Shown here: positions 1 through 16,865 of the stretch, in pieces | How the letters are laid out: the number at the start of each line of letters is the position of its first letter | How positions within the stretch are numbered: the stretch's first letter is position 1 | Assembly (NCBI GenBank): GCA_964645485.1 | Contig: CAZXZO010000001.1 | Location: forward strand, 18,203-82,202 | Direction: 5' to 3' | DNA from: an uncultured Candidatus Poseidoniales archaeon | GTDB lineage: Archaea; Thermoplasmatota; Poseidoniia; Poseidoniales; Thalassarchaeaceae | Length of the DNA stretch: 64,000 nt | The notes under the pieces: model-generated | What the model was told of the DNA's origin: nothing | Seen by the model: the letters and a program-made list of their open reading frames with translations, nothing else | Databases searched by the model: none | Made by a program: the position numbers and the translations under genes

Positions 1-4
1 CTTT

Positions 5-565
5 GTGGTTAGTGAATTGCTCGGCAGGGGTTTTGGGAGTCAATCCCTAGTCATTAATTTGGAGGCGCCATGGATTCATGCTTCGCAAGGTGAACTGATT
101 GGAAATATGTCGCAGTTACCAGATCATACTCTTGTTCACGTCGTTGAATATGAGACAGATATTGTTGTTGAAAAGTGCATTGGGCGCTGGCAGCATGCTC
201 GCTTACTTGCTCGGGATGGTATCACCTCTCTGCCGTCTGAGCAAGTACTTTTCTTGCAAGTTTCTACAGATTTCCATGGATTCCCAAGACTAATGGCATC
301 CCATTATTTGCAATCGGATTTTGTTAGAGATTCTTTGGCAAACAATTCTTATTATCCGCGAATTGAAGCACAAGCAGATTTCGTCGCCTCTTCTGCAGTT
401 GGTGATATGGCTTCGGCAGATTCGGCTAAATCATGGTTCATGAATGAAGGAGAAATGACGGATTTAGGAAGTTGGTCCGATGGAACCCCAGTCAAACCAA
501 TGATGATTGTTTCTTCGCCCCTTGAATTGTCGGATGGAGATTGGGATGCTTGTCCTCAACCTTGA
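5..565 (+). CDS. Hypothetical protein, probably 5'-truncated by the window edge
   Basis: 186-codon ORF from the window start, stop TGA at 563-565; no motif recognised. Confidence 0.6.
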   Translation: MVSELLGRGFGSQSLVINLEAPWIHASQGELIGNMSQLPDHTLVHVVEYETDIVVEKCIGRWQHARLLARDGITSLPSEQVLFLQVSTDFHGFPRLMASHYLQSDFVRDSLANNSYYPRIEAQADFVASSAVGDMASADSAKSWFMNEGEMTDLGSWSDGTPVKPMMIVSSPLELSDGDWDACPQP

Positions 566-571
566 GCCATT

Positions 572-628
572 TCAAGCGAGAGGAAGTTCGTAATTTTGTG
601 GTGGAGCGATTCCTAAATCGTCTGGAAT
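572..628 (-). repeat. Diverged tandem copy of the last 19 codons of taw1 (IPDDLGIAPPQNYELPLA*)
   Basis: 572-628 aligns to 629-685 at 46/57 nt, head-to-tail and in frame directly after the taw1 TGA. Confidence 0.95.
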
Positions 629-1753
629 TCAAATCATTGGAAGTTTGTAATTTTGTGGTGGAGCAATCCCTAAATCATCAGGGATTTGCCGAGTAGCAAT
701 GGGCAAGGTTACAGGAATAATTTCCTTACCAATCAGCGCTACTCGACTCTCGCGCCGGTCGGATAGAACTTCTCTGCCAACTAGAGGAGCAAGAGTGTTT
801 GAGAACTCCATGATATCATCGTGAGAAGGCATGTTGTCAATCGTGTGATTGTTTTGGGAATGTCCAACATGGACGTATCCCTTTGCCTCTATCCAGTCAG
901 GGTCTGCCAAATTATCAAGTCTGGCATAATCATCGTGATGACCTAGAGATTCACCTTTCAAGAGCGTATGGCGACACACAGTTCGGGTGTCCAAAGAGGG
1001 GAGCAGTGCGAGGGTTTGCTCAAGTTTTTCCCAGGCATTATCGTTGAACTTTGGTTTACAGAGTTTGTTGAAAAGTTGTTTATTCGGGGCATCAACACTG
1101 ATGTAAAGTTGGGTTGGGAGGGTGTCAAGATTTTCAATTACTTTTGGCAATGAACCATTTGTTACGAGGAAAGTTGAGACACCGTGGTCGTGACAGATTT
1201 CAAGAAATTCAGCGAGCCGAGAATACAGTGTTGGCTCACCGTTGAGAGAGATTGCAACGTGTTTCGGGTTTTGTGCGGCTTCCCATTTTTCAAATGGTAC
1301 ATCTTTGTGACCTTTGAATCCGGTTAGGAGTCTTCTGTGACCTCGAACACTTTCATAGAAAAGATGCTCAGGGTCGTCATCAACTTTGTTCAAAGTTTCT
1401 GAATGAGGTTCTCTCCAGCAGTAGGTGCAGGCGAGATTACAGGTGTCAACATTTGGTGCCATCTGCATGCATCCAGAAGATTCAATTCCGTAGAATGTGC
1501 CTTTGTAGCAATGTCGGTCATTCTTGAGGTCTTCTTTAGTCCAGTGGCAAACTTTGACACCACCGTGTTCTCCAACAAGTTGGTAAGATTGTTTGGCTAG
1601 TTTCACAGCAATTTCAGGTTCGATTTTGCTTTCACTAGTATAGGTAGTGACAGGGCTTCCTTGGGCTGGCATCGCGAATACCTCCAACAAAAACAGATTC
1701 CACAGCGGGATTGTGTCAGTAGTAAAGCGGGCGAGTAGCCTATCAGACTTCAA
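629..1753 (-). CDS. taw1: 4-demethylwyosine synthase (radical SAM, TYW1/Taw1); likely start ATG at 1672
   Basis: CNLACTYC radical-SAM motif, VKVCHWTK and CYKGTFYGIES motifs, AISLNGEPTLY, FLVTNG, WIEAKGY. Confidence 0.95.
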   Translation of the reverse strand: MKSDRLLARFTTDTIPLWNLFLLEVFAMPAQGSPVTTYTSESKIEPEIAVKLAKQSYQLVGEHGGVKVCHWTKEDLKNDRHCYKGTFYGIESSGCMQMAPNVDTCNLACTYCWREPHSETLNKVDDDPEHLFYESVRGHRRLLTGFKGHKDVPFEKWEAAQNPKHVAISLNGEPTLYSRLAEFLEICHDHGVSTFLVTNGSLPKVIENLDTLPTQLYISVDAPNKQLFNKLCKPKFNDNAWEKLEQTLALLPSLDTRTVCRHTLLKGESLGHHDDYARLDNLADPDWIEAKGYVHVGHSQNNHTIDNMPSHDDIMEFSNTLAPLVGREVLSDRRESRVALIGKEIIPVTLPIATRQIPDDLGIAPPQNYKLPMI

Positions 1754-1791
1754 CCCGCCGATTAGCAGAGAAACTTCTCCTCAAAATCTTG

Positions 1792-2187
1792 TTATGGTTT
1801 AATCCCGAGAACTTTAACACCATCAATTCCGATAAAATCACGGTCCTTAGTAATCAACGTTTGACCTGTTCTAATACTCACTGCTAGCATGACAGCATCA
1901 GCAAGAGAGAATTTGGTTCGACCTTCTTGGCGGCATTGCCATTTAATTTTCCCACTTTCGATGAGGTCGTCTTTAGTCAGGGAAATCTTGGTTACGAATA
2001 ATTCTACTTCAGTAAATGAAATATTAGGGTCACGATTATTTTTTACTGTAACATCTGAAATTTCTGCTAGTTGGTGTTGAGTAATGTACGCATTTTCACC
2101 CGATTCAATCAATAATTTAGTTAATTCAGTACTGACCGGTTCACGTTCCCAAATAAAATCTAAGACGATACTAGTATCAAGGATCAT
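1792..2187 (-). CDS. vapC: PIN-domain toxin (VapC-like)
   Basis: MILDTSIVL N-terminus, SLADAVMLA and LITKDRDF acidic PIN motifs; 4-bp overlap with the upstream antitoxin. Confidence 0.9.
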   Translation of the reverse strand: MILDTSIVLDFIWEREPVSTELTKLLIESGENAYITQHQLAEISDVTVKNNRDPNISFTEVELFVTKISLTKDDLIESGKIKWQCRQEGRTKFSLADAVMLAVSIRTGQTLITKDRDFIGIDGVKVLGIKP

Positions 2188-2489
2188 TCCTTATCCACTC
2201 CATATTCTGATTTATCAGATTCCTCAAAATCGTCAGTATCGTAATCCCATTGTTCGTGCTCACCGTACAGCCTTTTGAGGGAACCTCTTGCTGATAAAAT
2301 CCGTTGAATTCGTTTTGCTTCAAGTAAATCGGCCACATTGATTTCAATTATTATTTCATCACCTTTCTTTATTCCAGCATTTGCTAGTATTTTTTTGGGC
2401 AGAATTATTCCGAGCGAATTTCCAATCGCTCGAACCTTCGCTTTTATTGTTGATTTTTCAGACGCCTGATTTTGCTCAATAGTTTGCAT
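2184..2489 (-). CDS. AbrB/MazE/SpoVT-family antitoxin
   Basis: KVRAIGNSLGIILPKKILANAGIKKGDEIII swapped-hairpin signature, acidic C-terminal tail, directly upstream of the PIN gene. Confidence 0.9.
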   Translation of the reverse strand: MQTIEQNQASEKSTIKAKVRAIGNSLGIILPKKILANAGIKKGDEIIIEINVADLLEAKRIQRILSARGSLKRLYGEHEQWDYDTDDFEESDKSEYGVDKE

Positions 2490-2511
2490 GTATTATGCTA
2501 TTTGTTGACAC

Positions 2512-2536
2512 TATTTAAGATATTATGTTATAACAT
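2512..2536 (-). promoter_or_regulatory. Putative TATA box and palindromic operator of the TA operon
   Basis: Minus-strand TTAAATA at 2512-2518, about 25 bp before the ATG at 2489; perfect 12-bp palindrome ATGTTATAACAT at 2525-2536. Confidence 0.55.
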
Positions 2537-2634
2537 TGCTTGGTAATAATGAAAAATCAGAACATAAATAATCAAGAAAATTGGAATCCAAAACGTCAGA
2601 ATTTGAGCCGATTGGGTAAAATTCAACATGAAAA

Positions 2635-3492
2635 TTAGGCAAAATTTCCAGACTGATAATCAATAAATGCTTGCTGGATTTCAGCCTCCGTATTCATCAC
2701 GAATGGACCATATCTTGCTATCGGCTCGTTCAGTGGTTGGCCTGCTAATAGCAGTAATTCGGCACCTTCAACGGCATCTTTTGTAACAGAAAATGTGATT
2801 TCATCGCCATCAGTCAAAATTGCCATCTCTCCGTCATTTACCTCTTGTCCATCCTTCCCCCCGCCAACATTGAGAGCCCCACCAAAACAGAAGACAAGTC
2901 CGGTCAACCCTTGAGATAGGGATTGTGTGAGTGAACCTCCCGGAAGAATAGAAATGTGTAGGTAAGTGATAGGGATAACCGTATCAATAACCGCAGAAAC
3001 ACCCAAACTTTCACCGGCGACAACCACCACTTTGACTAAACCGTCCTCCGATTTTCCGACAGGAATTTCTCGGGCTGGTACATCTTGGTATCGAGGTTGC
3101 ATCATTTTCTTTTCACTGGGTAAATTTACCCAAATTTGGAATCCATGCATAATGCCGCCGGATTCTAGAAAGTCGTCTGGCGGCATTTCAGAGTGAATAA
3201 CTCCGCGTCCAGCAGTCATCCATTGCACGTCTCCTGGTTGCATCAGACTTGAATTACCAGCCGAATCCTCATGCAAGATTTTGCCCTCCAACAGATAAGT
3301 TACGGTCTCAAAACCTCGGTGTGGGTGAGAGGGTGCGCCGATTGCTTCACCGGGTGGCCAGTCGATTGGGCCCATCTCGTCGATGAGAAGAAACGGGTCG
3401 GTTAATTTTCCAAGAGCTGCTGGCCTGCGGACAGGAAAACCTCCACCTTCTAGGAGCCTGTGTGTGGGGATAATCTGGGCAACTTTTCTCAT
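2635..3492 (-). CDS. Pirin family protein
   Basis: DPFLLID, HPHRGFETVTYLLEG, GDVQWMTAGRGVIHSE, GFQIWVNLP, YGPFVMNT. Confidence 0.97.
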   Translation of the reverse strand: MRKVAQIIPTHRLLEGGGFPVRRPAALGKLTDPFLLIDEMGPIDWPPGEAIGAPSHPHRGFETVTYLLEGKILHEDSAGNSSLMQPGDVQWMTAGRGVIHSEMPPDDFLESGGIMHGFQIWVNLPSEKKMMQPRYQDVPAREIPVGKSEDGLVKVVVVAGESLGVSAVIDTVIPITYLHISILPGGSLTQSLSQGLTGLVFCFGGALNVGGGKDGQEVNDGEMAILTDGDEITFSVTKDAVEGAELLLLAGQPLNEPIARYGPFVMNTEAEIQQAFIDYQSGNFA

Positions 3493-3737
3493 GTTAAAAT
3501 CGCCTTGGGTTGCAGATTATTTAATGCTTTTATACAACAATTGGGATGTAATTGGAAATTTTTTTTGACTTGGTTCCAGGCGATTTCTCATCTGAAAATG
3601 TGGCTTTTATATTCCAAATAGCGGACATTGGTTATATTTTCCATTCAAGAAAATTGAAAATGTGGTGCAAATTTTTCACCTTGCTTTTGTCAACGTAACT
3701 GCACTCTATATTACACCGGTCTATTTCGCCCGGCTTA

Positions 3738-6296
3738 ATGAGTGAACTTGCTAGCCTCAAGAAGCGCCGCCGACTGACGCTTTTGGCATTTGGATTAGCG
3801 ACTATTTTCATCTTTTCCGGCTTTGTTTTTGGACCTTCAGGCAACAACCGTTCGGCCTTCACTTTGGTTGATGATGAAACTTGGGCTGCGGCTGCATTAG
3901 CCGATGAAAGAATGACTGAACCTGGCCATGATGCAGTCGTTTTCATCGGTCCAAAATGGGACACCGAAGGTGGTAATATTTTGGCTCTTTCAGTTTTGCA
4001 GGAATTGACCGACCGTCACGATGAAGTAATGTCAAATCCAGAAATCAATGAGCATTTCATCGAAGTTTACCAATGGCAAGTTCAAGCGCATGTCAGAGGC
4101 CCTTGGGGTTTTGGGGAAACCGTTAGAATGGTGATGAATCAAGAATCAATTGTTAGCCAACAAATAGGTTGGAACGGCTCAAGTTTCGAAAACGCCACCA
4201 GCGCCGATTTAGACGATGTGTTGACTAGACTTTTCAACTTCGAATTAGAAGATGGTAGCAAGCCATACAGGCTTATTGTCAGCGGTTTAGAACAAAAATC
4301 AGATGAATCTTGGTATGCCTGCGCAAGCATGATTTTTGGAGTTGCAAACTCCTCATCTTTGTTCGGAGAAGATGGTGAATACTCCAAGGTTCCCGGGGCC
4401 GACAAACCCTTCTTTGAGGAGTGGGAATTGTTGATCGACGACGTCTATGCTCAACCCATGGATGCGACAGGGGAAGATGTTCACGTGTGGTCATTCTTGG
4501 CTATTGACTCAGAGGTAAATGATGAGGTCAACCAAACGATGCCACTGATTGGAGTCTCATTTGTGTTAATGGTGGCTGTAATCGGGCTTTTCTTCCGCGA
4601 TTGGCGCGACGTTCTCTCTGCTACTGCTGGCCTTGGTCTGCTAATGGGTTGGATGTTTGGAACTCAAGCATGGTTAGGTTATCCACAGACCCAAGTTTCT
4701 GCAATGTTGCCAATTCTTTTACTCGCTCTGGGTGTTGATTTCTCTTTCCATAGTTTACAACGTTGGCGGGCGATTTCACACCGGAATGGTGGTGATGAAG
4801 AGGCTAGATTAGCGGCTGCATGGACAAGTATTGGCGAACTTAAGCCTGCACTTGGATTAGCAACAATCACCACCATGATTGCCTTTGGAACCGCTGCATT
4901 TTCTCCAATTCCTGATTTGGCAGAATGGGGTAGGTTAGCAGCGATTTACATTCCCGAAGCCTATCTGTTGCTAGGAATTTTCACAGTGGTACTGCGCTCA
5001 GGAAATGCTGTGCATCGTGGTGAATCACAGAAAGGATTCGCAGAAAAAATGCGTTCTCTTGGAGATTTTCAGGTCAAAAATCCTCTACCGTTTGTTCTAG
5101 CACTGTTGTTACTCTCAGGCAGTGCTTTTGTAATTGGTCAACCCGATTCTGATTTTGATGTTCACGACTATCTGGATGGAGATTCAAGGATGGTTCAATC
5201 GCTAGATACCGCGGCGATTGCATTTGACGAATCTAGTTCAGGTGAACCTGGATTTATTTTAGTCCAAGCAGGAGAGTCATCTGATCTGGCTAATTATGAC
5301 ACAATTCTACAACTTGATGCTTTGATGACTGATATTCGTCAACGCAATTGGACATATGATAATCCGACTATAATTGATGAAATCCGTTGGCAAATCGCAC
5401 TTGTAAATGCCGGAGGACCCGGATATAATTCTTCAACAATTAATCAACAAACAGGATTCCCTGAATCAAGTGCTGATATCCGTGCAATCTTAATTGACAT
5501 CTCAAGAAATGGAACAATGAATCCAGCAGATCCTCGCTCAATATCTACACCAACTCAAGTCGCTGCAATTGCCGCAATTGATTCAGAGACAGGCAAGTTA
5601 GAGATGCTAAAATTACCAATCAAGGTAGAGAAAGCTGAAGATTGGGTTTGGATGGGCGAGTATCAAGATGATGTTGAAGAGGTTATAGACCAACATTTAG
5701 ATTTCAGCAATGGGGAAAAGGCAATATTAACAGGGATTTCATATCAACGATATGTGTATGTAAATGCGATGACAAGTTCATTCCAGAACAGCATTTACAT
5801 CGCAATTATTGCCTGCTTCATTGTACTAATGTTCGTGTTTAGAGATATTCGACTTAGTGTGATAACAATTACACCAGTCGCCGCAGTCTCTTTTTGGCTA
5901 TATGCGGGAATGAATCTCGCAGGCCAAAGTCTCAACATTGTAACTCTCCAAGTCGCAAGTTTAGCCATCGGTTTGGGCTTGGATTATGCAATCCATGTTA
6001 CTCAAGCAATTCGCGAACAAAAGGAGCGACGTCCTGACGCGGGTATGGCGCGTTGGGTGCGGGGTATGATGGGTCACACAGGTACTGCGTTATTCGCCTC
6101 AGGTTTTACAGATATTCTCGGGTTTGCGGTGCTGCTTCTCTCGGTAATGCCGATGTTCACTATGTTTGGAAAAGTCATGATTGTCATGGTTATACTCGCA
6201 CAGGCTGCTTGTGTGTTCATTTTGCCAGCACTTTTGACCCTATTTGGTGGACTTGAAAATGATGTTGAGGCGGCAGACCCCAGCCTAGAATCTTAG
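3738..6296 (+). CDS. MMPL/RND family transporter
   Basis: Two TM bundles, each after a large extracytoplasmic loop; ALGVDFSFH and IGLGLDYAIH motifs. Confidence 0.9.
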   Translation: MSELASLKKRRRLTLLAFGLATIFIFSGFVFGPSGNNRSAFTLVDDETWAAAALADERMTEPGHDAVVFIGPKWDTEGGNILALSVLQELTDRHDEVMSNPEINEHFIEVYQWQVQAHVRGPWGFGETVRMVMNQESIVSQQIGWNGSSFENATSADLDDVLTRLFNFELEDGSKPYRLIVSGLEQKSDESWYACASMIFGVANSSSLFGEDGEYSKVPGADKPFFEEWELLIDDVYAQPMDATGEDVHVWSFLAIDSEVNDEVNQTMPLIGVSFVLMVAVIGLFFRDWRDVLSATAGLGLLMGWMFGTQAWLGYPQTQVSAMLPILLLALGVDFSFHSLQRWRAISHRNGGDEEARLAAAWTSIGELKPALGLATITTMIAFGTAAFSPIPDLAEWGRLAAIYIPEAYLLLGIFTVVLRSGNAVHRGESQKGFAEKMRSLGDFQVKNPLPFVLALLLLSGSAFVIGQPDSDFDVHDYLDGDSRMVQSLDTAAIAFDESSSGEPGFILVQAGESSDLANYDTILQLDALMTDIRQRNWTYDNPTIIDEIRWQIALVNAGGPGYNSSTINQQTGFPESSADIRAILIDISRNGTMNPADPRSISTPTQVAAIAAIDSETGKLEMLKLPIKVEKAEDWVWMGEYQDDVEEVIDQHLDFSNGEKAILTGISYQRYVYVNAMTSSFQNSIYIAIIACFIVLMFVFRDIRLSVITITPVAAVSFWLYAGMNLAGQSLNIVTLQVASLAIGLGLDYAIHVTQAIREQKERRPDAGMARWVRGMMGHTGTALFASGFTDILGFAVLLLSVMPMFTMFGKVMIVMVILAQAACVFILPALLTLFGGLENDVEAADPSLES

Positions 6297-6403
6297 AGTG
6301 GAACCATCATCTAGACTCATTCTACTTTCAATTGCCAAATGCTGGAAGAATACCACTTCTTAACTCCAATTGTTTAATCAAATTCAGCATGCAATTTACT
6401 CAT

Positions 6404-7438
6404 TTATTCAACACTAGAATTCCAATTTTGCATCAAATTTAATTCTTCAGTGACTCCGACCACATCGCCATCTTCCCACCAATCAACGGCGATGAAAGTC
6501 GGGCGATTGCCAACTTCTTGCCAGCATTCAATCGCCCTTGCCAACAAAGTCTCCTTGTCATTGACTTGTTCAGCCCTTTGGGAGTCAGCTAATCCAAGGG
6601 GATTACTCAACCAATTATTGAGATGCCAAACCGGCTGTTCTCGGTCTCCCCGACCCACATCACAGGACATATCCTCTTGTTCGTCTTCTCCGTAAGGGGT
6701 GTCCCAACTATGGGTCCAAGCATGGTGTAACCACGGGTATTGCGTATCGTCTCCTTCATCCCAAAATATTACCAAAGTGCGGTTTGAGAGCACCATTTCT
6801 CCAAGGGTAGGCCAAGGTTCTCCAGGTGAATGAACCCAAGTCCGGTCGAGTAGTCCAGTCTGGTTAAACAGGTGTTCAAGATGGTCAATAGGCACGTAAT
6901 TTTCTAGCAAAATTGAGACAATGTCGTTGGGTGATTCGTTCATGAAACTACTCAATTGAGAGAGCCACGCAAAGGCGTCCACTTCCGAATATTCACACGG
7001 GTGCAGGGATTGGTCCGGGTCGCCATGGCAGAATACAACATCCTCCTTGTTAGTCTGGGATGCTGATTTGTGATGGGTGTCAAGCATATAGGCGCGGATA
7101 CCTCCGTTCCACTGTGCAGTCAATCCGGTATCGTGGTTGGCTGCTAGATACAGGACTCCATCTTCGCTAGTAGCGAATGAGTTGTGGGTTTCAGCGAATG
7201 TGAAATTGTCGTAGGTTCGGAGGCAAAATTCGACCAGGCCTTGACAGGCTGGGGCGTCGGTGGAATCGTTTGGGTTGAGGCCGAATTCAGTCTCATAGCC
7301 ATCAGTCAGGCCGTCGCCGTCGCTGTCAGAATTTGGGTCAAATTCTGGTGAATTAACACCACCTAAACAGCCGGCAAAAAATAGACTAAAGGCTAAAAAA
7401 AGAGCGCAAAAAGATGAGCGCAGACAGGGTGACATCAT
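6404..7438 (-). CDS. PI-PLC X-domain phosphodiesterase, probable lipoprotein
   Basis: FAGCLGG lipobox-like signal, DSDGDGLTD Ca loop, THNSF and GIRAYMLDTH catalytic segments, PTFIAVDWW. Confidence 0.8.
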   Translation of the reverse strand: MMSPCLRSSFCALFLAFSLFFAGCLGGVNSPEFDPNSDSDGDGLTDGYETEFGLNPNDSTDAPACQGLVEFCLRTYDNFTFAETHNSFATSEDGVLYLAANHDTGLTAQWNGGIRAYMLDTHHKSASQTNKEDVVFCHGDPDQSLHPCEYSEVDAFAWLSQLSSFMNESPNDIVSILLENYVPIDHLEHLFNQTGLLDRTWVHSPGEPWPTLGEMVLSNRTLVIFWDEGDDTQYPWLHHAWTHSWDTPYGEDEQEDMSCDVGRGDREQPVWHLNNWLSNPLGLADSQRAEQVNDKETLLARAIECWQEVGNRPTFIAVDWWEDGDVVGVTEELNLMQNWNSSVE

Positions 7439-7557
7439 TCACTGATGTTAGCCACTTGGGAATCAACCCTTCGTAAACCAAGGGGCTTTTTTATTTCTCG
7501 GACATTGGGTATTTCACCTGAACGGCCTTCATAGTAATTTTTCATTTACAGCGAAAT

Positions 7558-7778
7558 TTATCGTTCGCTATCCCCGCGGACAATTTTGACTCCTTTTGGC
7601 CAAAGCACGAGAATTAGGGTTTTTTCACGGGTTTTTGGATTGTGGGTAGTTTCGGGGCCCATCCATACTAGGCTGCCCTGTGGGTACGTCCCTGACTCGT
7701 CGTACACCTCGCCACGCAGAACTAGGTAAGCCTCTCCACCTGGGTGCATGTGGGGCATAAACGCCTCCACCTCAACTT
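7558..7778 (-). pseudogene. Displaced 3' fragment of the cupin gene; could still encode a 66-70 aa mini-cupin
   Basis: 96% identical to the 3' half of 12682..13047 but with a different C-terminus (KIVRGDSER* versus KII*). Confidence 0.85.
7582..7778. repeat. 197-bp direct repeat, left copy (att-like)
   Basis: Matches 12688-12884 with 8 mismatches; 7695-7778 is identical. Confidence 0.95.
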
Positions 7779-10375
7779 TGGTTTCTCAGAAACTTCTTAT
7801 TGAAGAAAATTAGCACTAAAAAGAGAGAGGCCATTGAGGAAAACAGAAGAAGCCCATCCTGAATTGTTGATGTTGTTTCGTATTCTAGTGTGGCATTTGT
7901 GTGGTGTTTACAGCCATCAAGAGATTTCATTGAATCCACTGGTTCGTAGGGGCAACGATCAGCGCGAAATTCTCCTTCGATCCATAATCCAATTCCATCT
8001 TGGCGGGAATCATTCCAACTAGTATTCCACCAATTGTCACCCCAACTATCTCCATCACTATCATTCCATTGATAATAATTTAAGGGGAACAAGTCAATCA
8101 AATCTGCCCATCCATCTTGATCTATATCAGGGCATCCAAGATAATTTGCTTCTGTACTAGTTCCACTATCAAAGATACAGGCATCAAATTCATCGAGCCA
8201 ATCGTCATTATCATCATCATCGTCTTCATCAGAATCTCTACAACCATCAAAATCATTGTCACTGTTTGAATTGATAGTCCAATTGACGATTCCAATTGGA
8301 CAAAGGTCCCTTAAATCAATCAATTCATCGTTATCATCATCATCATCTTCCGTTGAATCTTGACAACCATCTCCGTCATGGTCGCTAGAATTGTTTGAAA
8401 TCCAATCAATATTCCCCCTAGTACAATAATCTGAGATATCTACTATACCATCATCATCATCATCGTCATCTTCCGTTGAATCCTGGCAACCATCTCTATC
8501 ATGGTCGCTAGAATTGTTTGAAATCCAATCAATATTCCCCCTAGTACAATAATCTGAGATATCTACTATACTATCATCATCATCATCGTCATCTTCCGTT
8601 GAATCCTGACACCCATCTCTATCATGGTCGGTTGATTGAATTGAGGTCCAGTTAAGTGTTCCTCGTGGGCATGAATCATTGAAGTCTATAATTCCATCAT
8701 TGTCATTATCTTCATCACAACTGTCACCTATATCATCACCATCATAATCTGATTGATTCGGATTTTCGGTTAAATTGCAATTATCTAAATAGTTGGGTAC
8801 ACCATCGCCATCTTTATCTGGATAAAATTGCCATAGAAAGAAATCTACATTCCTATCTAGTCCAAATGCAACTTTTGTTTGATTTTTAACACTCATATTG
8901 TAGGTAAATTTCCCGACCACGCTTATCATTCCATCATTTGATACCTCAATCGATATGGGTAGTCCGGATGGGTTTGTTTCAAGAGGCCCAGAGAATTCCG
9001 CCAACCAATATTTTTCAATGATGTTTTCATCATTGATTTTTAAAATAATAATAGCACTATTTGTTTTAATTGGCAGTGGCTTGTCGTACCAACTCGTATT
9101 GCCGTAGTATTTGATTGCTGCCAAGATACTTCCATCAGGGTGTTGAGTAACACTGTTAGGGATTACTTGGCTCAAAATTGTACACTCATTCGTTTTGACA
9201 TTAGTCCAAATCCCATCCTCACTGATAAATCCAGTGAATGTATTACAACTCAAGCCATTGATTTCAAATGTTCCGAACTGATAAGTATCATTAAAAAATG
9301 CTGGATTTGATGGATACATCCTTTGCATCCTTCCAGTAATAATAACTGATTTATTATCTAACAATAATATGTCAAAAATTTCAACTTGGCCCACACCATC
9401 AATAATAATTTTTGATAGTAGGTTCCAATAGCCTTCGCTAGAATAATGGAGAATGAAGGCACCTAGAGGGATATGTGAATAATTTTGGTCATGCGACGTA
9501 TTGATTGAATGATCACCAAATGATATATTCCCCTCTAAAATGACTCCCACTATCCATGCACCATCATTATCACATTCAAGACCATTCAATATAAGGGAAG
9601 AAATACTTCCTCCCTCACTACTTTCAATAGACTCGATAAAACCATAAATTCCATATTTCATGACAAATATGTCAAATCCTTGGCTTGTTACTTCGTTACT
9701 TACCGTGGTTGGGGATATTCTACCAGAATAGATCCCGGAAACGTATGAATTTCCAATGCTATCATGGCAAACTAATTGTGCACTCGACGAATCAAGGGAA
9801 AATGAGGGTTCATTATTGAAAATTTGAGATGTCAATAGTTCTCCAGAAGTTGAAATTATCGCAATAAATCCAGATTTATTTCCCTCATTTAGATAAGTAA
9901 AATTATTAATTGTTAGGTTTGTATAGACCTCGCCAACAGCAGTAATTGTATCAGATTGAGATATAGAAAAGTCAAAAAATCTGGCGCTGGTGCCAAGATC
10001 AATTATCCAATCAATACTCCCATTTAGTAAGTATTTTGCAATGAATGAATTACCATTTGTGCCATCTGAATTGTTAAAGAGATGGTTTCCCAACCATCCC
10101 CACGAACCAAATTTCCCGAGAACATACGTGTTTCCTTCCGAATCAAAAATTTGTTTTTCAAGTTGGTCTCCATGTCCTTCGCCACCACCAGATTTAAGAA
10201 TATGGACATAGTTTTCATCAGATAATGGGACATTTTCATCAGCTAATAGAATGTCATTTTGAAGAACAAGGTTTGATGCTGAATTCAACAATAACATCAC
10301 TATGGTAATCAACAAAACAAATTTACTAAAATATTTGGTTTGTGGCAGTGATAACCCCTTGTCGTTCATCAACAT
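7772..10375 (-). CDS. Membrane-anchored beta-propeller (SBBP-like) protein with TSP3-like Ca-binding repeats
   Basis: Signal/TM at the N-terminus; repeated D-x-x-GN-x-Y-V-x-G and FIAKY blades; DxDxDG/DDDNDG repeats with Cys; C-terminal TM. Confidence 0.8.
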   Translation of the reverse strand: MLMNDKGLSLPQTKYFSKFVLLITIVMLLLNSASNLVLQNDILLADENVPLSDENYVHILKSGGGEGHGDQLEKQIFDSEGNTYVLGKFGSWGWLGNHLFNNSDGTNGNSFIAKYLLNGSIDWIIDLGTSARFFDFSISQSDTITAVGEVYTNLTINNFTYLNEGNKSGFIAIISTSGELLTSQIFNNEPSFSLDSSSAQLVCHDSIGNSYVSGIYSGRISPTTVSNEVTSQGFDIFVMKYGIYGFIESIESSEGGSISSLILNGLECDNDGAWIVGVILEGNISFGDHSINTSHDQNYSHIPLGAFILHYSSEGYWNLLSKIIIDGVGQVEIFDILLLDNKSVIITGRMQRMYPSNPAFFNDTYQFGTFEINGLSCNTFTGFISEDGIWTNVKTNECTILSQVIPNSVTQHPDGSILAAIKYYGNTSWYDKPLPIKTNSAIIILKINDENIIEKYWLAEFSGPLETNPSGLPISIEVSNDGMISVVGKFTYNMSVKNQTKVAFGLDRNVDFFLWQFYPDKDGDGVPNYLDNCNLTENPNQSDYDGDDIGDSCDEDNDNDGIIDFNDSCPRGTLNWTSIQSTDHDRDGCQDSTEDDDDDDDSIVDISDYCTRGNIDWISNNSSDHDRDGCQDSTEDDDDDDDGIVDISDYCTRGNIDWISNNSSDHDGDGCQDSTEDDDDDNDELIDLRDLCPIGIVNWTINSNSDNDFDGCRDSDEDDDDDNDDWLDEFDACIFDSGTSTEANYLGCPDIDQDGWADLIDLFPLNYYQWNDSDGDSWGDNWWNTSWNDSRQDGIGLWIEGEFRADRCPYEPVDSMKSLDGCKHHTNATLEYETTSTIQDGLLLFSSMASLFLVLIFFNKKFLRNQS
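8250..8650 (-). repeat. 123-bp (41-aa) intragenic tandem repeats
   Basis: DHDRDGCQDSTEDDDDDDDxIVDISDYCTRGNIDWISNNSS unit; TCCAATCAAT at 8401 and 8524 gives the 123-bp period. Confidence 0.9.
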
Positions 10376-10403
10376 CCCCCCGCCTTCATTTATTATTATT
10401 GAG

Positions 10404-12614
10404 TTACTCCAAGATACTCCAATCTGAAGGTGTTTGGCACATTAACTGGAAGTTACCGAGATTGCATGGGGTCGCAGAATTGTGAAAAATATATTGATTA
10501 TCGGGGTAGGTTCCGGTATGACCTGACATAACAAAATACAGTTCAGGCTCTGGGGTCATTGAGTTTAATTCGTAAGACCCAACATAAGATACACCGTTTA
10601 CAACAGGTCCGTATTTTTCGTCAGTTATCTTGCGATGTTGGATGACAAAAGAACCAATACAGTATGATTGAGTTGATGAAGGTGATTGGCAACCTAGAGT
10701 GTCAGTGGAATCTTCGTAAGTCGGCCAATTCGAATTGATGTAATTCCACAGTTCATTACAACTAATAGAATCCCAACTGCAAGATTGGCTTGTATCTCTA
10801 GACCAAACGGATATAGGGGCAGAAAACCCTAGCATATGGCTGTTGATTGTTACCAATTGATTCGGCAAATGGTCCACCTCGTTTAATCCTCTAATTGATA
10901 ATAGGCCATATGGTAAATAGTTCACACTGGTGGGATTTGGGTCTTGTCTTTGAATATTTACCCACCAATTTTCAATGTAATAGCCACCCGGCATCCATTG
11001 GGTAGCTTTGAAAATCGGATTTAATTCAATTCGGGTGTAGTTTAACCAATGGGTGCCAGTGATGAATGCGTTGTTCTGTGTCGGCCCATCATTGATTTTA
11101 CTTTGCCATGAAGGGAAAAAATACACAGGATTGAACGCCCCTATTGGATTAGATTTTTCCATGATATCTCGAGGCAGGCAGTTGATTGGATTGTAACAAT
11201 AACCTAAGGTAATAGAGTTCGTTATAATACTGCTGAACGGAAAACCAAACCGTGAATATGGGTGACCCGGGCCACCTAGGGAATGGCCGATTTCATGTGA
11301 TAATGTGATTGCACTCTCAAATATTGGATAAGATTGTGACCAACTCGGGGAATTTCCAGTTCTTGATGTTTGGACGAAAATAAATCGGCCATTGACTTGA
11401 CGAAAACTTGGATGTTGTTCATTTACTAAGACACCATTAGCTCGAAGTGCGGGAGTTGAACAGCCTTGGAGATTGTTGCCGGCACTATTTTTCACAAGAT
11501 TATCCCCCGAAATGAACATAACTAGGTCAACGTCTTCGGTTAGTTCATCATAAATAAGACCATAGTGTTCAATGATATCAGTTTCAAAACTATGCAAGGT
11601 TTGAGTTAATTGGGCAGGATAATTATCGTCCTCACAAATTGCGCCTCTAAATCCATAATTAGTCTTTGTAAATCCATTAATTGAATCAATTATAGAATAA
11701 GGTTGGGTTGAGAGTATATCTTGATATGATGTATATCTCGTCCATTCAACTGTGATTCCTAACTGGTGACGATACCATAAACTAGTACTCGCGAGTATAC
11801 TTTCAATCATGGCCGTGCCGACAGGATTTTGGTTTGACGTAGTTTGAGTCCCTAAGTCAACCACATGAACTCTTAATAATTTGAACACATTTAGCGAGAG
11901 ATTTGTATTCAGAGCCATCGGTGAATAATACCAATCTTCAAATGCAGATGGTGCAGTATAGGGGGTGGTGCCTGCAATTTCGCATGCTGATGTGGTTTTA
12001 CATGCATCATATACAATTACATTCACATCTCCTGAGTTTGATTCAAGAAGTTGAATTTGAACACGATTTTCAACTTCAATCAAGGCTCGAAAATTGTCTT
12101 GAGGATTTCTTGGAAAAAATAAAGTTCCATAGGAAACTTCATCCTGATATTGGGTAATGCCTTCAATCCACCATGAATCCACTCCTTGATCTGGGCCCGG
12201 TCCATCTCCTAAGCTCAGGGGACCAAGGGTGGTTGAGGTTGCAACAAAATCCCACTCAATTACAGAAGAACCACTACCCAATCGCAAAGTTATTCCCCCT
12301 TCACATAAGAAAATATGTTTAATTTCGTCTGGAGTAATAGTTGAGGACGATGGGTTTTGAAATCTCATAAGTTTATTATTAACAATTTCTATTTTTGTAT
12401 AGTTGAGAGGGTGATCGGCGGTTAGCCATTGACCATCATGCCAATTCCCAGTTGAATCCCAAGAATTTTGTGCAGAGATTGTCGGCCCACAGTCATTCTG
12501 CCAATGGTGAGTTGAGCTATCTGAATAACTCTCTGCAGATGACATTGAAATTAATGGTGATAATAGTATTAGCAATACGAAAGTTGCTATTACCTTAGTA
12601 TTTTTTTTATTCAT
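10404..12614 (-). CDS. Secreted zinc metalloprotease, reprolysin/M12-like metzincin
   Basis: Signal peptide, DVDLVMFISG strand, HEIGHSLGGPGH zinc motif, downstream RDIM Met-turn. Confidence 0.7.
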   Translation of the reverse strand: MNKKNTKVIATFVLLILLSPLISMSSAESYSDSSTHHWQNDCGPTISAQNSWDSTGNWHDGQWLTADHPLNYTKIEIVNNKLMRFQNPSSSTITPDEIKHIFLCEGGITLRLGSGSSVIEWDFVATSTTLGPLSLGDGPGPDQGVDSWWIEGITQYQDEVSYGTLFFPRNPQDNFRALIEVENRVQIQLLESNSGDVNVIVYDACKTTSACEIAGTTPYTAPSAFEDWYYSPMALNTNLSLNVFKLLRVHVVDLGTQTTSNQNPVGTAMIESILASTSLWYRHQLGITVEWTRYTSYQDILSTQPYSIIDSINGFTKTNYGFRGAICEDDNYPAQLTQTLHSFETDIIEHYGLIYDELTEDVDLVMFISGDNLVKNSAGNNLQGCSTPALRANGVLVNEQHPSFRQVNGRFIFVQTSRTGNSPSWSQSYPIFESAITLSHEIGHSLGGPGHPYSRFGFPFSSIITNSITLGYCYNPINCLPRDIMEKSNPIGAFNPVYFFPSWQSKINDGPTQNNAFITGTHWLNYTRIELNPIFKATQWMPGGYYIENWWVNIQRQDPNPTSVNYLPYGLLSIRGLNEVDHLPNQLVTINSHMLGFSAPISVWSRDTSQSCSWDSISCNELWNYINSNWPTYEDSTDTLGCQSPSSTQSYCIGSFVIQHRKITDEKYGPVVNGVSYVGSYELNSMTPEPELYFVMSGHTGTYPDNQYIFHNSATPCNLGNFQLMCQTPSDWSILE

Positions 12615-12681
12615 ATATTTTGGGTATTTTCGATGAGTTATATAGTTATACTAAAACTGATTTATGTTCTTTTATCTAGTC

Positions 12682-13047
12682 TTAAATAATTTTGACTCCA
12701 TTTGGCCAAAGCACGAGAATTAGGGTTTTTTCGCGGGTTTTGGGGTTGTGGGTAGTTTCGGGGTCCATCCATACTAGGCTGCCCTTTGGGTACGTGCCCG
12801 ACTCGTCGTACACCTCGCCACGCAGAACTAGGTAAGCCTCTCCACCTGGGTGCATGTGGGGCATAAACGCCTCCACCTCAACTTCTGCATCTGCGTCGTA
12901 TAACACTAGTGAGCAATCACCTTCTCTGGCAAGTTTACCTAGGCGTACGCCAGTTCCAAAGTCCTTCCAGCGGATATTTTCTTCAAGCCATGCGTCATCA
13001 ATTGAGATACCGAGCCAATCTGACAAGTCGTGATTGAATGCCATCAA
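12682..13047 (-). CDS. ChrR-like cupin domain protein
   Basis: PHMHPGGEAYLVLRGEVYDESGTYPKGSLVW...THNP matches cupin motifs 1 and 2 (H-x-H, E, H). Confidence 0.85.
   Translation of the reverse strand: MMAFNHDLSDWLGISIDDAWLEENIRWKDFGTGVRLGKLAREGDCSLVLYDADAEVEVEAFMPHMHPGGEAYLVLRGEVYDESGTYPKGSLVWMDPETTHNPKTREKTLILVLWPNGVKII
12688..12884. repeat. 197-bp direct repeat, right copy (att-like), forming the 3' end of the intact cupin gene
   Basis: Matches 7582-7778; offset 5106 bp. Confidence 0.95.
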
Positions 13048-13916
13048 TTACTGCACAGGCGGATTTCACACATGAGCCTTCGGGCGCAGACTTGATGGCA
13101 GATGAAGTCTTGTGGGCCCATATGGCAGAGGTGATTTTCATCCCTTCATTGCCGCCGGCCTCGCCTTACGAAGCCTATCTCTACATGCTTGTTCTGCCTC
13201 TTTTTTTGAGGCTAATTTTGGTGCTTCCACCCTTGATTGACTTAGTCTCAAAGTTTTCACCTGACCGTAAAATTCTTTTTCAGGCAATTAATTCATTAAA
13301 AATTAAGGGATTATGGGTCATTGTATTCAATGAGGTATTGGCAATTTTCTTACCATTTATATTAGCACTTTATGCACGAACATTGTTTGACCCTATTGGT
13401 TGGGAAGGCTGGAATGAAACTCCTACAGAAGCAATTTATGCATTATTGATAGCTGGAGGATTGTGGTTGTTTGGAGATTTTCTGAGAGTTACACGCACTC
13501 GCCGATTAATCCGCTCGGTATCAGAGCGAAATAGAGTTGTTGTGAAACTTACGGCCCAAGGCATATCACATGCACGTGGTGCTCTAGGATACATTGGTGG
13601 CTTGAGTCTTAAAGGGAAAAAACCAGAGGATGGTGGGCTAGAGGACAATCAGTCTGCGATTGGTGAATCTAAAAAATCAATTTTAGGAACTTTACTTGGT
13701 GCCGGTGGTGTTGCTGGGGATAAGGGTCGCGAACTCGCTGATGCGGCATTTGGTGTTGTCCGAGATAAGGCGAACGACCTTTCCAACAAAATGGATGACC
13801 AAATTCAAAGAGGTATTCGTCAGCAATCAAAGGTTGCTCTAAAACTACTGATTAGAGACATCTTGATGAGCGTTGGACCGATTGTAATCCTTGTTGGACT
13901 TTACAACGTTTGGTAA
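13038..13916 (+). CDS. Hypothetical membrane protein; start probably 13095 or 13122
   Basis: 292-codon ORF with 3-4 hydrophobic helices. Confidence 0.75.
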   Translation: MPSITAQADFTHEPSGADLMADEVLWAHMAEVIFIPSLPPASPYEAYLYMLVLPLFLRLILVLPPLIDLVSKFSPDRKILFQAINSLKIKGLWVIVFNEVLAIFLPFILALYARTLFDPIGWEGWNETPTEAIYALLIAGGLWLFGDFLRVTRTRRLIRSVSERNRVVVKLTAQGISHARGALGYIGGLSLKGKKPEDGGLEDNQSAIGESKKSILGTLLGAGGVAGDKGRELADAAFGVVRDKANDLSNKMDDQIQRGIRQQSKVALKLLIRDILMSVGPIVILVGLYNVW

Positions 13917-15423: not shown

Positions 15424-15610
15424 ATTTTTCATAGGGAGAGATTTTCTGTTTTTTCTTCATTTTTCATAGCGAGAGATTTTTCTGTTTTTTATGATTTTTC
15501 AAGGTGAGAGGTTTTTCTGTTTTTTCTTCATTTTTCAAGGTGAGAGGTTTTTCTGTTTTTCTTCATTTTTCATAGCGAGAGATTTTCTGTTTTTTCTTCA
15601 TTTTTCAAGG
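15424..15610 (-). repeat. Tandem array of five 35-36 bp units echoing the MFS gene 3' end
   Basis: Units start at 15424, 15459, 15494, 15530 and 15565; the last contains the gene's stop; consensus ATTTTTCAwrGyGAGAGrTTTTCTGTTTTTTCTTC. Confidence 0.95.
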
Positions 15611-16865
15611 CCAGAAATTTTTTCTCACCCGGTCCAACTATGATTACCCAACATACACCTGACAGGACTTGTAGGATGGCAAAAATCTGGATTCCTTCAC
15701 GCAGTGTCATGTTTGTATATTCTAGGAGTAGGCTTGCTGCTAATGTTGAGAATCCGTTTAGGAGAGTCATCAGCAGGAAATCCGTGCTAAATACCCGGCC
15801 CCTCCAAGCATCCTCACTTCGCTCTTGTAACAGAACAGTCGACAGTACCCAGTTTGCTCCACTCGCCGCATGTCCTATGGTGACAAGGGCGGCAACCCAT
15901 GGTGACCATTCAAGCCAACCTATGGCCATATATGCCAGCCCACAGGCACTCACTAGCCAGCCAAGGAAGAACGGCCAGCGGCTACGATCTGTGAAAGCGT
16001 AGCGTGCAAGAATGGGGCCCAATCCTGTTCCAAGTCCTCGAGCAGCAAACAGAATGCCAATTCCTGCGGCAATACTGCCAACCCCCATATCATCTCCAAC
16101 AAGGACTAGCATGTAGACAAGCCCGCCACCAAACACGCTCCATAGCGCCTTAGCGGTGATGATTCTTCGAACTGGGGGTGTACTGAAAATGATTCGAAAC
16201 CCATCGGTGATTGTGCCTGCTGTATTGGCCCAAATCCCTCCCGGTTTTGCAACATAAGCCTCCTGTGGAATATCGATTGTGCTGTACATAAACGCAGCAA
16301 CCAAGAATGATATTGCATTTACCACGAAGGCAACTTCAACCCCATAGGCTGCAACGACAAATCCGCCAACACTCGCACCTAAACACAATGCAGCACTCCA
16401 CGTTCCGCTGTTCAGCGCATTTGCTGTCAACAACTCGTTATCTTCTGTGATGTTTGGAATCGAAGCATTTTCTGCGGGAATGAACACTGCGTGAAGAATC
16501 ATCAGAACACTAGAGATGACATAGACAAGCCAAACCTCGCTGGCATCATCAACTAGTAACAGCAACAAGACGGCTACAGCCGACAGAAGATTGGCCCAAA
16601 TCATCAGCCACTTCCGACTGAATCGGTCGGCCAACATTCCAGTGAATATTTGAGGAAGAGCCAGCGAGAACATCCTGATAACAAATAGTAGACCAATGCC
16701 CAGCTCCGACCCAGTTAGGGTGTAGATTAGGACGAACAGTGCAACGGTGTTGAACCATTCCCCTAGCATAGAGATTGAGAGACCAATCCACAAACGACGA
16801 TAGACAGGATTGCCTTTGAGAAGTTCGAGAAACCCTACCTCCCGTTCCTGCATGGCTCGCGCCAC
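15570..16865 (-). CDS. MFS transporter (H+ antiporter DHA3-like)
   Basis: About 12 TM helices, GMLADRFSRK motif A, WRGRVFS. Confidence 0.95.
   Translation of the reverse strand: MARAMQEREVGFLELLKGNPVYRRLWIGLSISMLGEWFNTVALFVLIYTLTGSELGIGLLFVIRMFSLALPQIFTGMLADRFSRKWLMIWANLLSAVAVLLLLLVDDASEVWLVYVISSVLMILHAVFIPAENASIPNITEDNELLTANALNSGTWSAALCLGASVGGFVVAAYGVEVAFVVNAISFLVAAFMYSTIDIPQEAYVAKPGGIWANTAGTITDGFRIIFSTPPVRRIITAKALWSVFGGGLVYMLVLVGDDMGVGSIAAGIGILFAARGLGTGLGPILARYAFTDRSRWPFFLGWLVSACGLAYMAIGWLEWSPWVAALVTIGHAASGANWVLSTVLLQERSEDAWRGRVFSTDFLLMTLLNGFSTLAASLLLEYTNMTLREGIQIFAILQVLSGVCWVIIVGPGEKKFLALKNEEKTENLSL

Follow-up and report, generated by a model that had tools for sequence, protein, structure and literature searches.

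A secreted-protein islet bounded by a duplicated cupin gene tail in a Poseidoniales archaeon looks like the product of ordinary recombination

How did two genes for secreted proteins come to lie between two copies of the 3′ end of a single cupin gene? Such an arrangement occurs in a 64,000-nucleotide stretch of DNA (the window) from a metagenome-assembled genome of an uncultured Candidatus Poseidoniales archaeon (Marine Group II, Thalassarchaeaceae). Archaea of Marine Group II are abundant, have not been cultured, and have no gene-transfer machinery that we know of. An initial annotation of the window read the locus as an integrase-less cargo island that had docked in the cupin gene as a circle. 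Here, we describe the locus, its cargo, its relatives, and similar loci, and we weigh the ways in which it could have arisen.

RESULTS

A duplicated gene tail bounds a two-gene insert

The minus-strand order is an intact cupin gene, a 736-amino-acid (aa) open reading frame (ORF), an 867-aa ORF, a cupin 3′ fragment, and a gene for a 344-aa lipoprotein. The parts of the locus are as follows.

12682 to 13047, minus strand: intact Cupin_7 (ChrR-like) gene, 121 aa, ending in ...NGVKII and a stop codon (Pfam PF12973, E 1.3e-12)
12688 to 12884, minus strand: repeat copy B, inside the functional cupin gene
12615 to 12687, minus strand: AT-rich spacer from the cupin stop to the first cargo gene, the left edge of the inserted DNA
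10404 to 12614, minus strand: cargo gene 1, 736 aa
7772 to 10375, minus strand: cargo gene 2, 867 aa (Pfam TSP_3)
7582 to 7778, minus strand: repeat copy A, the 3′ end of the resident cupin gene, now displaced
7558 to 7778, minus strand: the whole displaced cupin fragment to its own stop codon, ending in ...KIVRGDSER
6404 to 7438, minus strand: resident neighbor, a 344-aa lipoprotein gene (precomputed Pfam domains PI-PLC_X/Rv2075c_cat)

Positions 7582 to 7778 and 12688 to 12884 form a direct repeat of 197 nucleotides (nt) with 96% identity, and these two copies, both at the cupin locus, are the only ones in the 1.94-Mb assembly. The replacement 3′ end is the last 197 or more nt of the intact cupin gene, and the displaced fragment is a pseudogene remnant because its start codon and 5′ half are absent. 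When repeat positions are numbered starting at the gene-proximal end, the copies differ at positions 86, 89, 99, 121, 140, 143, 152, and 185, and five of these differences are synonymous and three non-synonymous (K/Q, D/G, and N/K). A recount agreed with the initial annotation on the 197-bp length, the eight mismatches and their effects, and their confinement to the gene-distal part; the identical gene-proximal stretch that it described was also found, at 85 nt rather than 84, and the remainder is ~7% diverged. Each copy carries private changes that are absent from relatives. The mostly synonymous character of the differences fits two alleles, each evolved as coding sequence.

Similarity begins abruptly at 7778/12884 and stops at the last codons of the cupin gene, and homology, both of copy to copy and to all relatives, stops immediately past ...GTCAAAATT. 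The insert lies between repeats made of the cupin gene's 3′ end, and the cupin gene itself is intact. One junction is seamless and lies within a conserved anchor, the cupin gene being conserved in 34 of the 41 Poseidoniales genomes searched, and the second is abrupt and without homology. The stop codon of the 867-aa ORF (7772 to 7774) falls inside repeat copy A, as had been claimed, and the cargo fills the space between the repeats tightly, leaving no junk. Also upheld was the description of an AT-rich interior with two genes and no recombinase: GC content is 0.377 in the interior versus 0.453 in each flank (0.22 over the first 128 nt of cargo), and a search of the two cargo proteins for recombinase domains found none. 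We conclude that the cupin gene has a replaced tail and that its former tail lies beyond the cargo.

The cargo is nearly orphan

The 736-aa protein has an N-terminal signal or membrane segment and a zinc-peptidase-like (HExxH) motif, HEIGHSLGGPGH, and searches of Pfam and NCBIfam returned no match. It is a near orphan, with four relatives among 1.84 billion representatives, and it is absent from 300 genomes of the order except for one marginal 59-aa match (E 5e-4). Residues H440, E441, and H444 are invariant in the alignment of these relatives, and one homologue (P0005) gave a sub-threshold match to Reprolysin_3. An AlphaFold model, built on a four-sequence alignment, was unusable (mean pLDDT 28.6).

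The 867-aa protein has an N-terminal hydrophobic segment, thrombospondin type-3 (TSP3) calcium-binding repeats, and a C-terminal membrane anchor. The TSP3 repeats are encoded by 123-nt tandem units at 8192 to 8694, the NCBIfam match is to an MtsC-like TSP3 region, and residues 30 to 520 have no homologue in a large protein database. Both cargo genes were found only in this lineage. Judged by motifs only, gene 1 most likely encodes a metallopeptidase-like protein that is secreted or anchored, and gene 2 a surface protein that binds calcium.

The site is empty in the nearest species

In the nearest species, G011, the lipoprotein gene comes directly after the cupin gene, and an MMPL gene comes next. 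The cupin end of that species (...KIVRERSGR and stop) and the DNA downstream of it match the tail type of copy A. The initial annotation would have been undermined had all relatives carried the two genes without an empty allele, and G011 speaks against that, the empty site being that of another species rather than a same-species allele. The comparison supports the block as a true insertion relative to G011. Copies A and B are 96% identical to each other and at most 88% identical to any other species, which argues both that the insertion postdates the split from G011 and that the two tails came from the same species-level pool.

A survey of 40 relatives, together with 80 loci from metagenomes and 80 from genomes, found neither a second cupin copy nor the cargo genes, and it does not bear out the earlier description of the cassette as "swappable." Relatives differ in the genes that they have between the cupin gene and taw1, a hypervariable interval of the kind that a recombination hot spot would produce. 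No relatives of the cupin were found on viral contigs. In collections that exclude near-identical records, an exact 34-mer scan of metagenome contigs matched no allele of the species itself, whether empty or occupied. Two candidates from the survey were set aside. A 60-aa cupin ORF from other metagenomes (P0017), considered as a second echo of the gene tail, sits where the cupin gene normally does and is probably either a miscall or a gene with a frameshift. A cupin of 120 aa whose residues resemble those of copy A (P0019), considered as a same-species empty allele, lies on a contig that is ~85% identical and comes from a different species.

No recombinase or site-specific signal was found to account for the insert

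A genome search for tyrosine or serine recombinases, which had been proposed as a check, found in the assembled genome (82% complete) a single tyrosine recombinase, an XerA orthologue conserved order-wide. Serine recombinases, TnpB, and Cas1 were not found in the same 82%-complete genome. No terminal inverted repeats pair the two ends of the cargo, and with neither these nor TnpB the insert does not qualify as a transposon or insertion sequence. The repeats of this islet and of the two described below have no motif in common beyond chance 10- to 11-mers. For an Xer-exploiting element (IMEX), which would insert at a dif-like site common to such elements, the observation is again that the islet repeats have no shared motif.

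The anatomy recurs at other genes

A second islet in the genome adjoins the 16S rRNA gene, where genes for secreted proteins of 788 and 193 aa are flanked by a perfect repeat, 193 bp long, of the 3′ end of 16S rRNA. This site too is empty in G011, the repeat has no degenerate upstream extension, and the 788-aa protein is absent from 150 genomes of the family. A reading in which this islet ends in a broken dehydrogenase gene was discarded, as the aldehyde dehydrogenase match was non-significant (E 0.88) and there was no Pfam match. At a third islet, the tail of a cyclophilin gene is present three times around genes of 844 and 238/239 aa; four relatives have an empty site here, and G011 carries the same islet, its echo being 73% identical. 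Within the nested cyclophilin islet, a 5′ piece of an aconitase gene is joined to the last 72 nt of an 844-like gene, a junction that is an arbitrary fragment end and not a cassette boundary. Repeat lengths are similar in the three islets (168 to 197 bp). Profile comparison of the 736-aa family and the 788/844-aa family detected no homology, and hence the cupin islet's cargo has no demonstrable tie to that of the other two.

Elsewhere, the tail of taw1 is duplicated with nothing between the copies. Moreover, an unrelated contig, L219, carries a distant homologue of the 736/867 pair that also echoes the tail of its upstream gene, over ~24 nt and with synonymous differences only; we report this echo as a new observation. 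We conclude that the pattern of the cupin islet recurs at other genes of the genome, and it looks like ordinary recombination rather than a self-mobile element.

DISCUSSION

The explanation that we favor, with modest confidence, is that the host's own recombination added DNA from another strain, anchored in the cupin gene. A 4.9-kb block from a closely related strain, consisting of the donor's own cupin 3′ end followed by two secreted- or surface-protein genes, would have been added behind the cupin gene. The incoming DNA would have paired homologously with the resident cupin gene to give the seamless junction, and the far end of the block would have met the chromosome at a point 203 nt upstream of the stop codon of the functional cupin gene. 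Two routes could give this second junction: a linear fragment joined illegitimately, through microhomology, or a circular fragment that bore the 197-bp homology and underwent reciprocal exchange. By either route, the donor tail would have become the working gene end and the resident tail a dead echo 5.1 kb downstream. The initial annotation had proposed single-crossover integration of a circle carrying a replacement cupin 3′ end; the insertion and the replaced tail hold, and the circle is one possible form of the donor, since a linear fragment with one homologous and one illegitimate junction would give the same product. The integrase in trans that the annotation named as an alternative is likewise a conjecture.

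Host homologous recombination as the catalyst, the form of the donor DNA, and an origin in a related strain are points that we infer. In favor of this explanation are the empty site in G011, the timing of the insertion, the coding character of both tails, the lack of a recombinase, the lack of site-specific signals, the same anatomy at other anchor genes, the arbitrary fragment end in the cyclophilin islet, and the variable interval between the cupin gene and taw1. Several observations count against it. In collections that exclude near-identical records, neither a donor arrangement, with the cupin gene, 736, and 867 but no echo, nor a same-species empty allele turned up. The cargo is nearly orphan and its GC content is below that of the flanks, which fits a hypervariable surface-gene pool and does not thereby prove related-strain origin. 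The distal joint coincides exactly with the stop codon of the 867-aa gene, which is tidier than a random end, and the L219 echo has a length typical of att cores, which is short for homologous recombination. Finally, 85 nt of identity followed by 7% divergence is not predicted, and would need either mosaic alleles or later gene conversion.

One might ask whether the joined structure exists at all. An empty chromosome and a separate 5.1-kb circle, or another strain sharing the 85-bp stretch, could have been mis-threaded by the assembler: a chromosome and a repeat-sharing circle give the same assembly graph as an integrated islet, and the assembly was made with k=55 scaffolds. Scaffold joins account for the many 55-bp repeats in the rest of the assembly, however, and these are unrelated to the 197-bp repeat; the island region contains no N; normal reads are longer than the 85-bp identical stretch; and the abrupt junction between the end of the 867-aa gene and the repeat must be present in reads. 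A contig from a JGI metagenome (L041), 13 single-nucleotide polymorphisms (SNPs) from the window over 20.6 kb, has both repeat copies and the same gene order, the 736-aa protein is found on contigs of at least 20 kb in four database blocks, and the cupin-fragment ORF is recorded on four contigs. With at least one independent assembly, 13 SNPs apart, showing the same joined structure, the assembly artefact against which the initial annotation had cautioned is very improbable. Quite improbable, too, is a repeat that arose on the spot. It would then be a long target duplication that the insertion itself generated, with staggered breaks or replication-fork template switching as the mechanism, or else a local duplication of older date; in this lineage its copies would later have diverged. 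The perfect identity of the 193-bp 16S repeat, the like lengths of the repeats in the three islets, and the identity of the first 85 nt of the cupin repeat would all suit such an origin. Nevertheless, the differences in the cupin repeat are clustered and mostly synonymous even though the echo is untranslated, private changes are present in both copies, and 8 of 11 differences in the cupin repeat and L219 together are synonymous, against an estimated ~44% for decay of one copy (P ~0.05). To our knowledge, no prokaryotic process makes target duplications of 200 bp.

In another reading, the islet is a mobilisable cassette without an integrase, comparable to a cis-mobilisable element (CIME) or a ccr-less SCC cassette, and the 197-bp repeats would be its attL and attR: a site-specific recombinase from elsewhere (viral, plasmid-borne, or encoded in the 18% of the genome that is unassembled) would insert and excise a 5.1-kb circle on which the recoded cupin tail serves as attP. 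The anatomy is that seen when an element integrates into a protein gene at its 3′ end, e14 in icd with its icdC remnant being an example (PMC13626634), and the cargo is tightly packed between the repeats. Echoes are found in all four cassettes of two families, and the homologous pair on L219 has an att-sized echo with only synonymous differences. Against this stand XerA as the genome's only integrase, the 200 related loci without a second cupin copy or an element at the site, and the lack of any cupin relative on viral contigs. The anchors differ and have no common motif, the echoes vary in length from 24 to 197 nt, and one islet has a truncated gene at its boundary. We regard such a cassette as unlikely. 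A broader conjecture, distinctly unlikely at present, is that Poseidoniales carry a family of integrase-free secreted-protein cassettes in which the recoded host-gene tail acts as a homology "address"; these might travel from cell to cell, perhaps inside vesicles, in the form of fragments or small circles, and dock behind that gene via the host's RadA machinery or an unrecognised enzyme, with the echo a working part of an exchange system and not a scar.

Several known systems resemble the islet in part. The CIMEs of streptococcal integrative and conjugative elements (ICEs) and the ccr-less SCC elements at the 3′ end of rlmH are integrase-less remnants bounded by att repeats, and they have a short defined att core in common with integrase-bearing relatives at the same site. 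Like the cupin islet, they carry cargo only and lie behind a conserved gene, with copies of its end on either side, and are sometimes stacked in tandem, whereas here neither integrase-bearing relatives at the site nor a common core was found. In Escherichia coli, the prophage e14 (and phage 21) integrate in icd and leave behind the C-terminal pseudogene icdC (PMC13626634). The likeness lies in an insert in the 3′ end of a protein gene, a replacement tail that is mostly synonymous, and an original tail kept at the far end (PMC13626634); in contrast, e14 encodes an integrase and excises site-specifically, and the islet has two cargo genes in a genome with XerA only. Homology-facilitated illegitimate recombination combines one homologous anchor with one illegitimate joint (PMC3240628). 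It shares with the islet a seamless anchor junction, an abrupt other junction, and foreign DNA beside the anchor. The process is familiar in transformable bacteria and in conjugation, and it is not known to occur in uncultured Marine Group II archaea.

Among marine plankton, SAR11 has a hypervariable region adjoining its rRNA genes. In Prochlorococcus, which has tRNA-flanked genomic islands, the tycheposons have site-specific integrases, replication modules, and tRNA targets (10.1101/2020.12.28.424599). Both the Prochlorococcus islands and the SAR11 region resemble the islets in belonging to streamlined marine plankton and in placing niche or surface genes by conserved anchors, with partial copies of anchor ends and stacked insertions. 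Unlike tycheposons, the islets are anchored at a cupin gene, the 16S rRNA gene, and a cyclophilin gene, and they have no integrase. The Charybdis elements of Marine Group II archaea are ~4.6-kb circles with ~10 small genes, including one for the double Greek-key protein Gp3 (10.1101/2025.08.03.668216); by that description the islet, which has two large genes only, is not one of them.

On present evidence, the cupin locus serves as an instructive case of an island that grew through recombination. Together with its sister loci, it gives a clean before-and-after view of one gain of secreted or surface genes. The echo of the anchor tail marks such gains and could serve to count them in metagenomes. 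If it were true that echoes serve excision and re-docking, these archaea would have an integrase-free cassette system.

Architecture of the cupin islet

A 197-nt direct repeat (7582-7778, copy A; 12688-12884, copy B; 96% identity) brackets two cargo genes behind a cupin gene, and no third copy was found in the 1.94-Mb assembly. We refer to cargo genes that lie behind an anchor gene and are flanked by copies of its tail as an islet, and to the distal tail copy, here copy A, as an echo. In minus-strand order, the features are as follows.

13047..12682, minus strand: intact Cupin_7 gene, 121 aa, ending in copy B
Between the cupin gene and the 736-aa ORF: spacer of 73 nt, strongly AT-rich
10404..12614, minus strand: 736-aa ORF
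7772..10375, minus strand: 867-aa ORF, stop codon (7772-7774) within the distal repeat
After the 867-aa ORF, minus strand: cupin 3′ fragment, which continues to its own stop and ends KIVRGDSER
After the cupin 3′ fragment, minus strand: lipoprotein gene, 344 aa, with PI-PLC_X-type domains

The GC content of the islet interior is 0.377, compared to 0.453 in each flank, and terminal inverted repeats were absent from the cargo ends. The two copies differ by eight mismatches at repeat positions 86 to 185, numbered from the gene-proximal end, such that 85 nt at that end are without mismatch. Recomputation in the cupin frame gave the same five synonymous and three nonsynonymous (K/Q, D/G, and N/K) differences as the initial annotation.

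The genome that holds the window (G000) contains numerous exact 55-bp repeats with a spacing of 155 (e.g., window 63946-64000), which are scaffold joins in which duplicated k=55 overlaps flank 100 N, an assembly feature unconnected with the 197-nt repeat. The islet region itself is free of N. Moreover, a 22.5-kb JGI metagenome contig (L041), in which 20.6 kb can be compared to the window with 13 SNPs between them, has the same gene order and contains both copies, each identical to its counterpart. The 736-aa protein was found on contigs of at least 20 kb in four database blocks, and the cupin fragment ORF was found on four contigs from three sources. Because of L041, the further contigs, and an identical stretch (85 nt) that is shorter than a normal read, we take the integrated form to be real. 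Mis-threading, an assembly artifact of the sort that the initial annotation named as a potential refutation, is highly improbable.

Both cargo genes are intact. The 736-aa protein has a hydrophobic N terminus and a HEIGHSLGGPGH motif, and matched no Pfam or NCBIfam family. Only four of 1.84 billion representative proteins are related to it. H440, E441, and H444 are invariant across those relatives, one of which has a subthreshold match to Reprolysin_3, and a putative zinc metallopeptidase is a reasonable guess; the predicted structure (pLDDT 28.6) was unusable. In the 867-aa protein, a hydrophobic segment at the N terminus is accompanied by thrombospondin type-3 (TSP3) repeats and a C-terminal membrane anchor; no relative was found for its N-terminal 500 residues.

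One relative of the 736-aa protein (P0005, 29% identity) is encoded on an unrelated 4-kb contig, L219 (Logan SRR29008692_206226, 1-4009), where the gene for this 693-aa HExxH protein precedes one for a 551-aa TSP3 protein anchored at its C terminus. The two genes are thus a distant homologue of the cargo pair. The gene upstream of the pair ends ...ISDWLQVNM*. Downstream of the pair lies an echo that encodes ...ISDWLQVN*, with about 21 of 24 nt matching and 14 nt exact; all three differences are synonymous. Therefore, both known complete copies of the pair sit behind differing genes, and each is followed by a tail echo.

Polarity and age of the gain

[quoted passage not shown] G011, the nearest species, has the lipoprotein gene and an MMPL gene immediately after cupin, and the cupin tail there, KIVRERSGR, is of the copy A type. 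Thus, copy A is the resident end, and the added DNA consists of copy B and the two ORFs. The empty site in G011 also counts against the alternative, raised in the initial annotation, that the same two genes occupy this position in all relatives.

Copies A and B share 96% identity, and each is at most 88% identical to the sequence of any other species. Had the insertion predated the split from G011, the untranslated echo would be expected to have diverged by at least the divergence between species, and it has not. The comparison indicates that the gain was recent, in this lineage, with both tails drawn from one species-level pool. Each copy shows states absent from relatives at the eight variable sites; with so few sites the statistical support is weak, and the 5:3 synonymous excess and private states would fit a pair of alleles that each evolved while serving as a working gene end. 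In comparisons across species, 9 to 19 differences fall in the first 84 nt of the segment and 16 to 31 in the other 113 nt, such that the former stretch is not unusually conserved. Therefore, the identical block reflects real heterogeneity (P of about 0.01 to 0.03 by our estimate). The block can be explained by mosaic alleles or by gene conversion at a later time, and no model predicts it outright.

Gene content downstream of cupin is modular

The interval between cupin and taw1 (window 600-13050; L023-L038 and L046-L125 in other genomes and contigs) is hypervariable across the genus, with a modular gene content in which the lipoprotein, MMPL, pirin, MazE-PIN, and a CxxCH-containing protein of 846 to 897 aa with a 168-aa membrane protein are variously combined, or all genes are missing. 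In every case, similarity stops at the last codons of cupin. On the far side, at window 572-685, taw1 (629..1753, minus) ends ...NYKLPMI* and is followed without spacer by an in-frame 57-nt copy of its own tail; the distal copy ends ...NYELPLA* and resembles the usual tail of relatives.

Other features were also noted. A tandem array of five units of ~36 to 37 nt (window 15424-15610) starts at the last codons of an MFS gene (15570..16865, minus), and the methyltransferase gene that follows is missing in some relatives. Gene calls on Lau Basin metagenome contigs from four samples (L228-L231) give a 60-aa ORF, beginning MPHMH, for cupin in its usual place, which suggests either that cupin is frameshifted or N-terminally disrupted in that lineage or that there are sequencing errors.

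Other islets in the genome

Whole-genome self-comparison of G000 revealed further islets of like anatomy, alongside which the cargo-less tail copy behind taw1 can be placed.

G000:C10:33898-37901 (L044 5899-9902): 16S islet, perfect 193-bp repeat, encoding a 788-aa HExxH secreted protein and a 193-aa protein
G000:C1:137767-143347 (L045 about 5768-11348): cyclophilin islet, some 55 kb past the window end

The 16S islet repeat joins ~132 nt from the end of the only 16S rRNA gene to 61 nt of trailer, and 405 nt of noncoding DNA precede the distal copy. The site is empty in G011, and a JGI contig (L218) breaks within both repeat copies. In G005, a further relative, a 2,237-aa ORF comes after the 16S end (L234, G005:C12, 938-8606), and a second 16S 3′ end starts another contig beside the usual downstream gene (L235, G005:C25, 1-233), which suggests differing cargo at the same anchor, with the contig breaks leaving this uncertain.

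The cyclophilin tail (last 99 nt and 69 nt of trailer) is present three times around 844-aa and 238/239-aa proteins, and the 844-aa protein is homologous to the 788-aa protein of the 16S islet (26% identity; E, 1e-25). The 5′ end of an aconitase gene occurs twice at this site (586 bp, 99%). Four relatives have an empty site and G011 has an orthologous islet with an echo 73% identical, and thus such echoes can persist and decay. No motif was common to the cupin, 16S, and cyclophilin repeats.

Separately, just past the window end, a lone 529-aa gene lies between the copies of a 61-nt direct repeat (82%; G000:C1:85610-85670 and 87456-87516). The 3′ end of a 493-aa minus-strand gene forms one of these copies, and this may be a further case of a tail echo.

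Origin of the cupin islet

The cupin islet encodes no recombinase. The genome search proposed in the initial annotation was run, and G000 (82% complete) yielded one tyrosine recombinase, a XerA orthologue whose best NCBIfam match was the archaeal XerA model, at a bit score slightly under the cutoff, and no serine recombinase, TnpB, or Cas1. Genomes across the order have a single XerA each, with identity that follows phylogeny. The data give no sign of a circle, of excision, or of the proposed swapping of cassettes at the cupin site. Among about 200 loci, a second cupin copy was found in no further genome or contig, and no cupin tail was found on viral contigs. The Charybdis elements, small circles reported for this archaeal order, differ from the cupin islet in gene content (10.1101/2025.08.03.668216).

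Three processes yield the order gene, new tail, cargo, and old tail: (a) a site-specific integrase could act on a circle with a gene-tail mimic, as for prophage e14 in Escherichia coli icd (PMC13626634); (b) a circle carrying a gene tail could enter by a homologous single crossover; or (c) a linear fragment could be imported, with a homologous crossover upstream in cupin and the far end joined illegitimately inside the resident cupin. Process (c) would tend to leave echoes in compact genomes: a joint inside the anchor gene would be harmless because the donor supplies an intact end, and one further downstream would hit the next gene. We lean toward host recombination, by either (b) or (c), because an integrase is lacking, the anchors are unrelated and without common motif, echoes vary in length between 24 and 197 nt, the cyclophilin site joins an aconitase 5′ piece to the last 72 nt of a gene like that for the 844-aa protein, a junction that is an arbitrary fragment end, and gene content between cupin and taw1 varies modularly among relatives.

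Site-specific integration would account for the tidily packed cargo, a distal joint that coincides exactly with a stop codon, the shortness of the L219 echo, which is att-sized, and the presence of an echo with every cassette seen; we nonetheless consider it rather unlikely. Less likely still is a target duplication created by the insertion itself, which fits the perfect 16S repeat but not the synonymous bias between the cupin copies. We know of no process that makes such a target duplication.

We conclude that the cupin islet is a real, recent, integrase-less gain of two genes behind a conserved gene, in which the tail was replaced and the echo displaced, and that it is one among several islets of this kind in G000. 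Its place is among the known islands that have target-end duplications at their bounds, with host recombination as its most likely maker.
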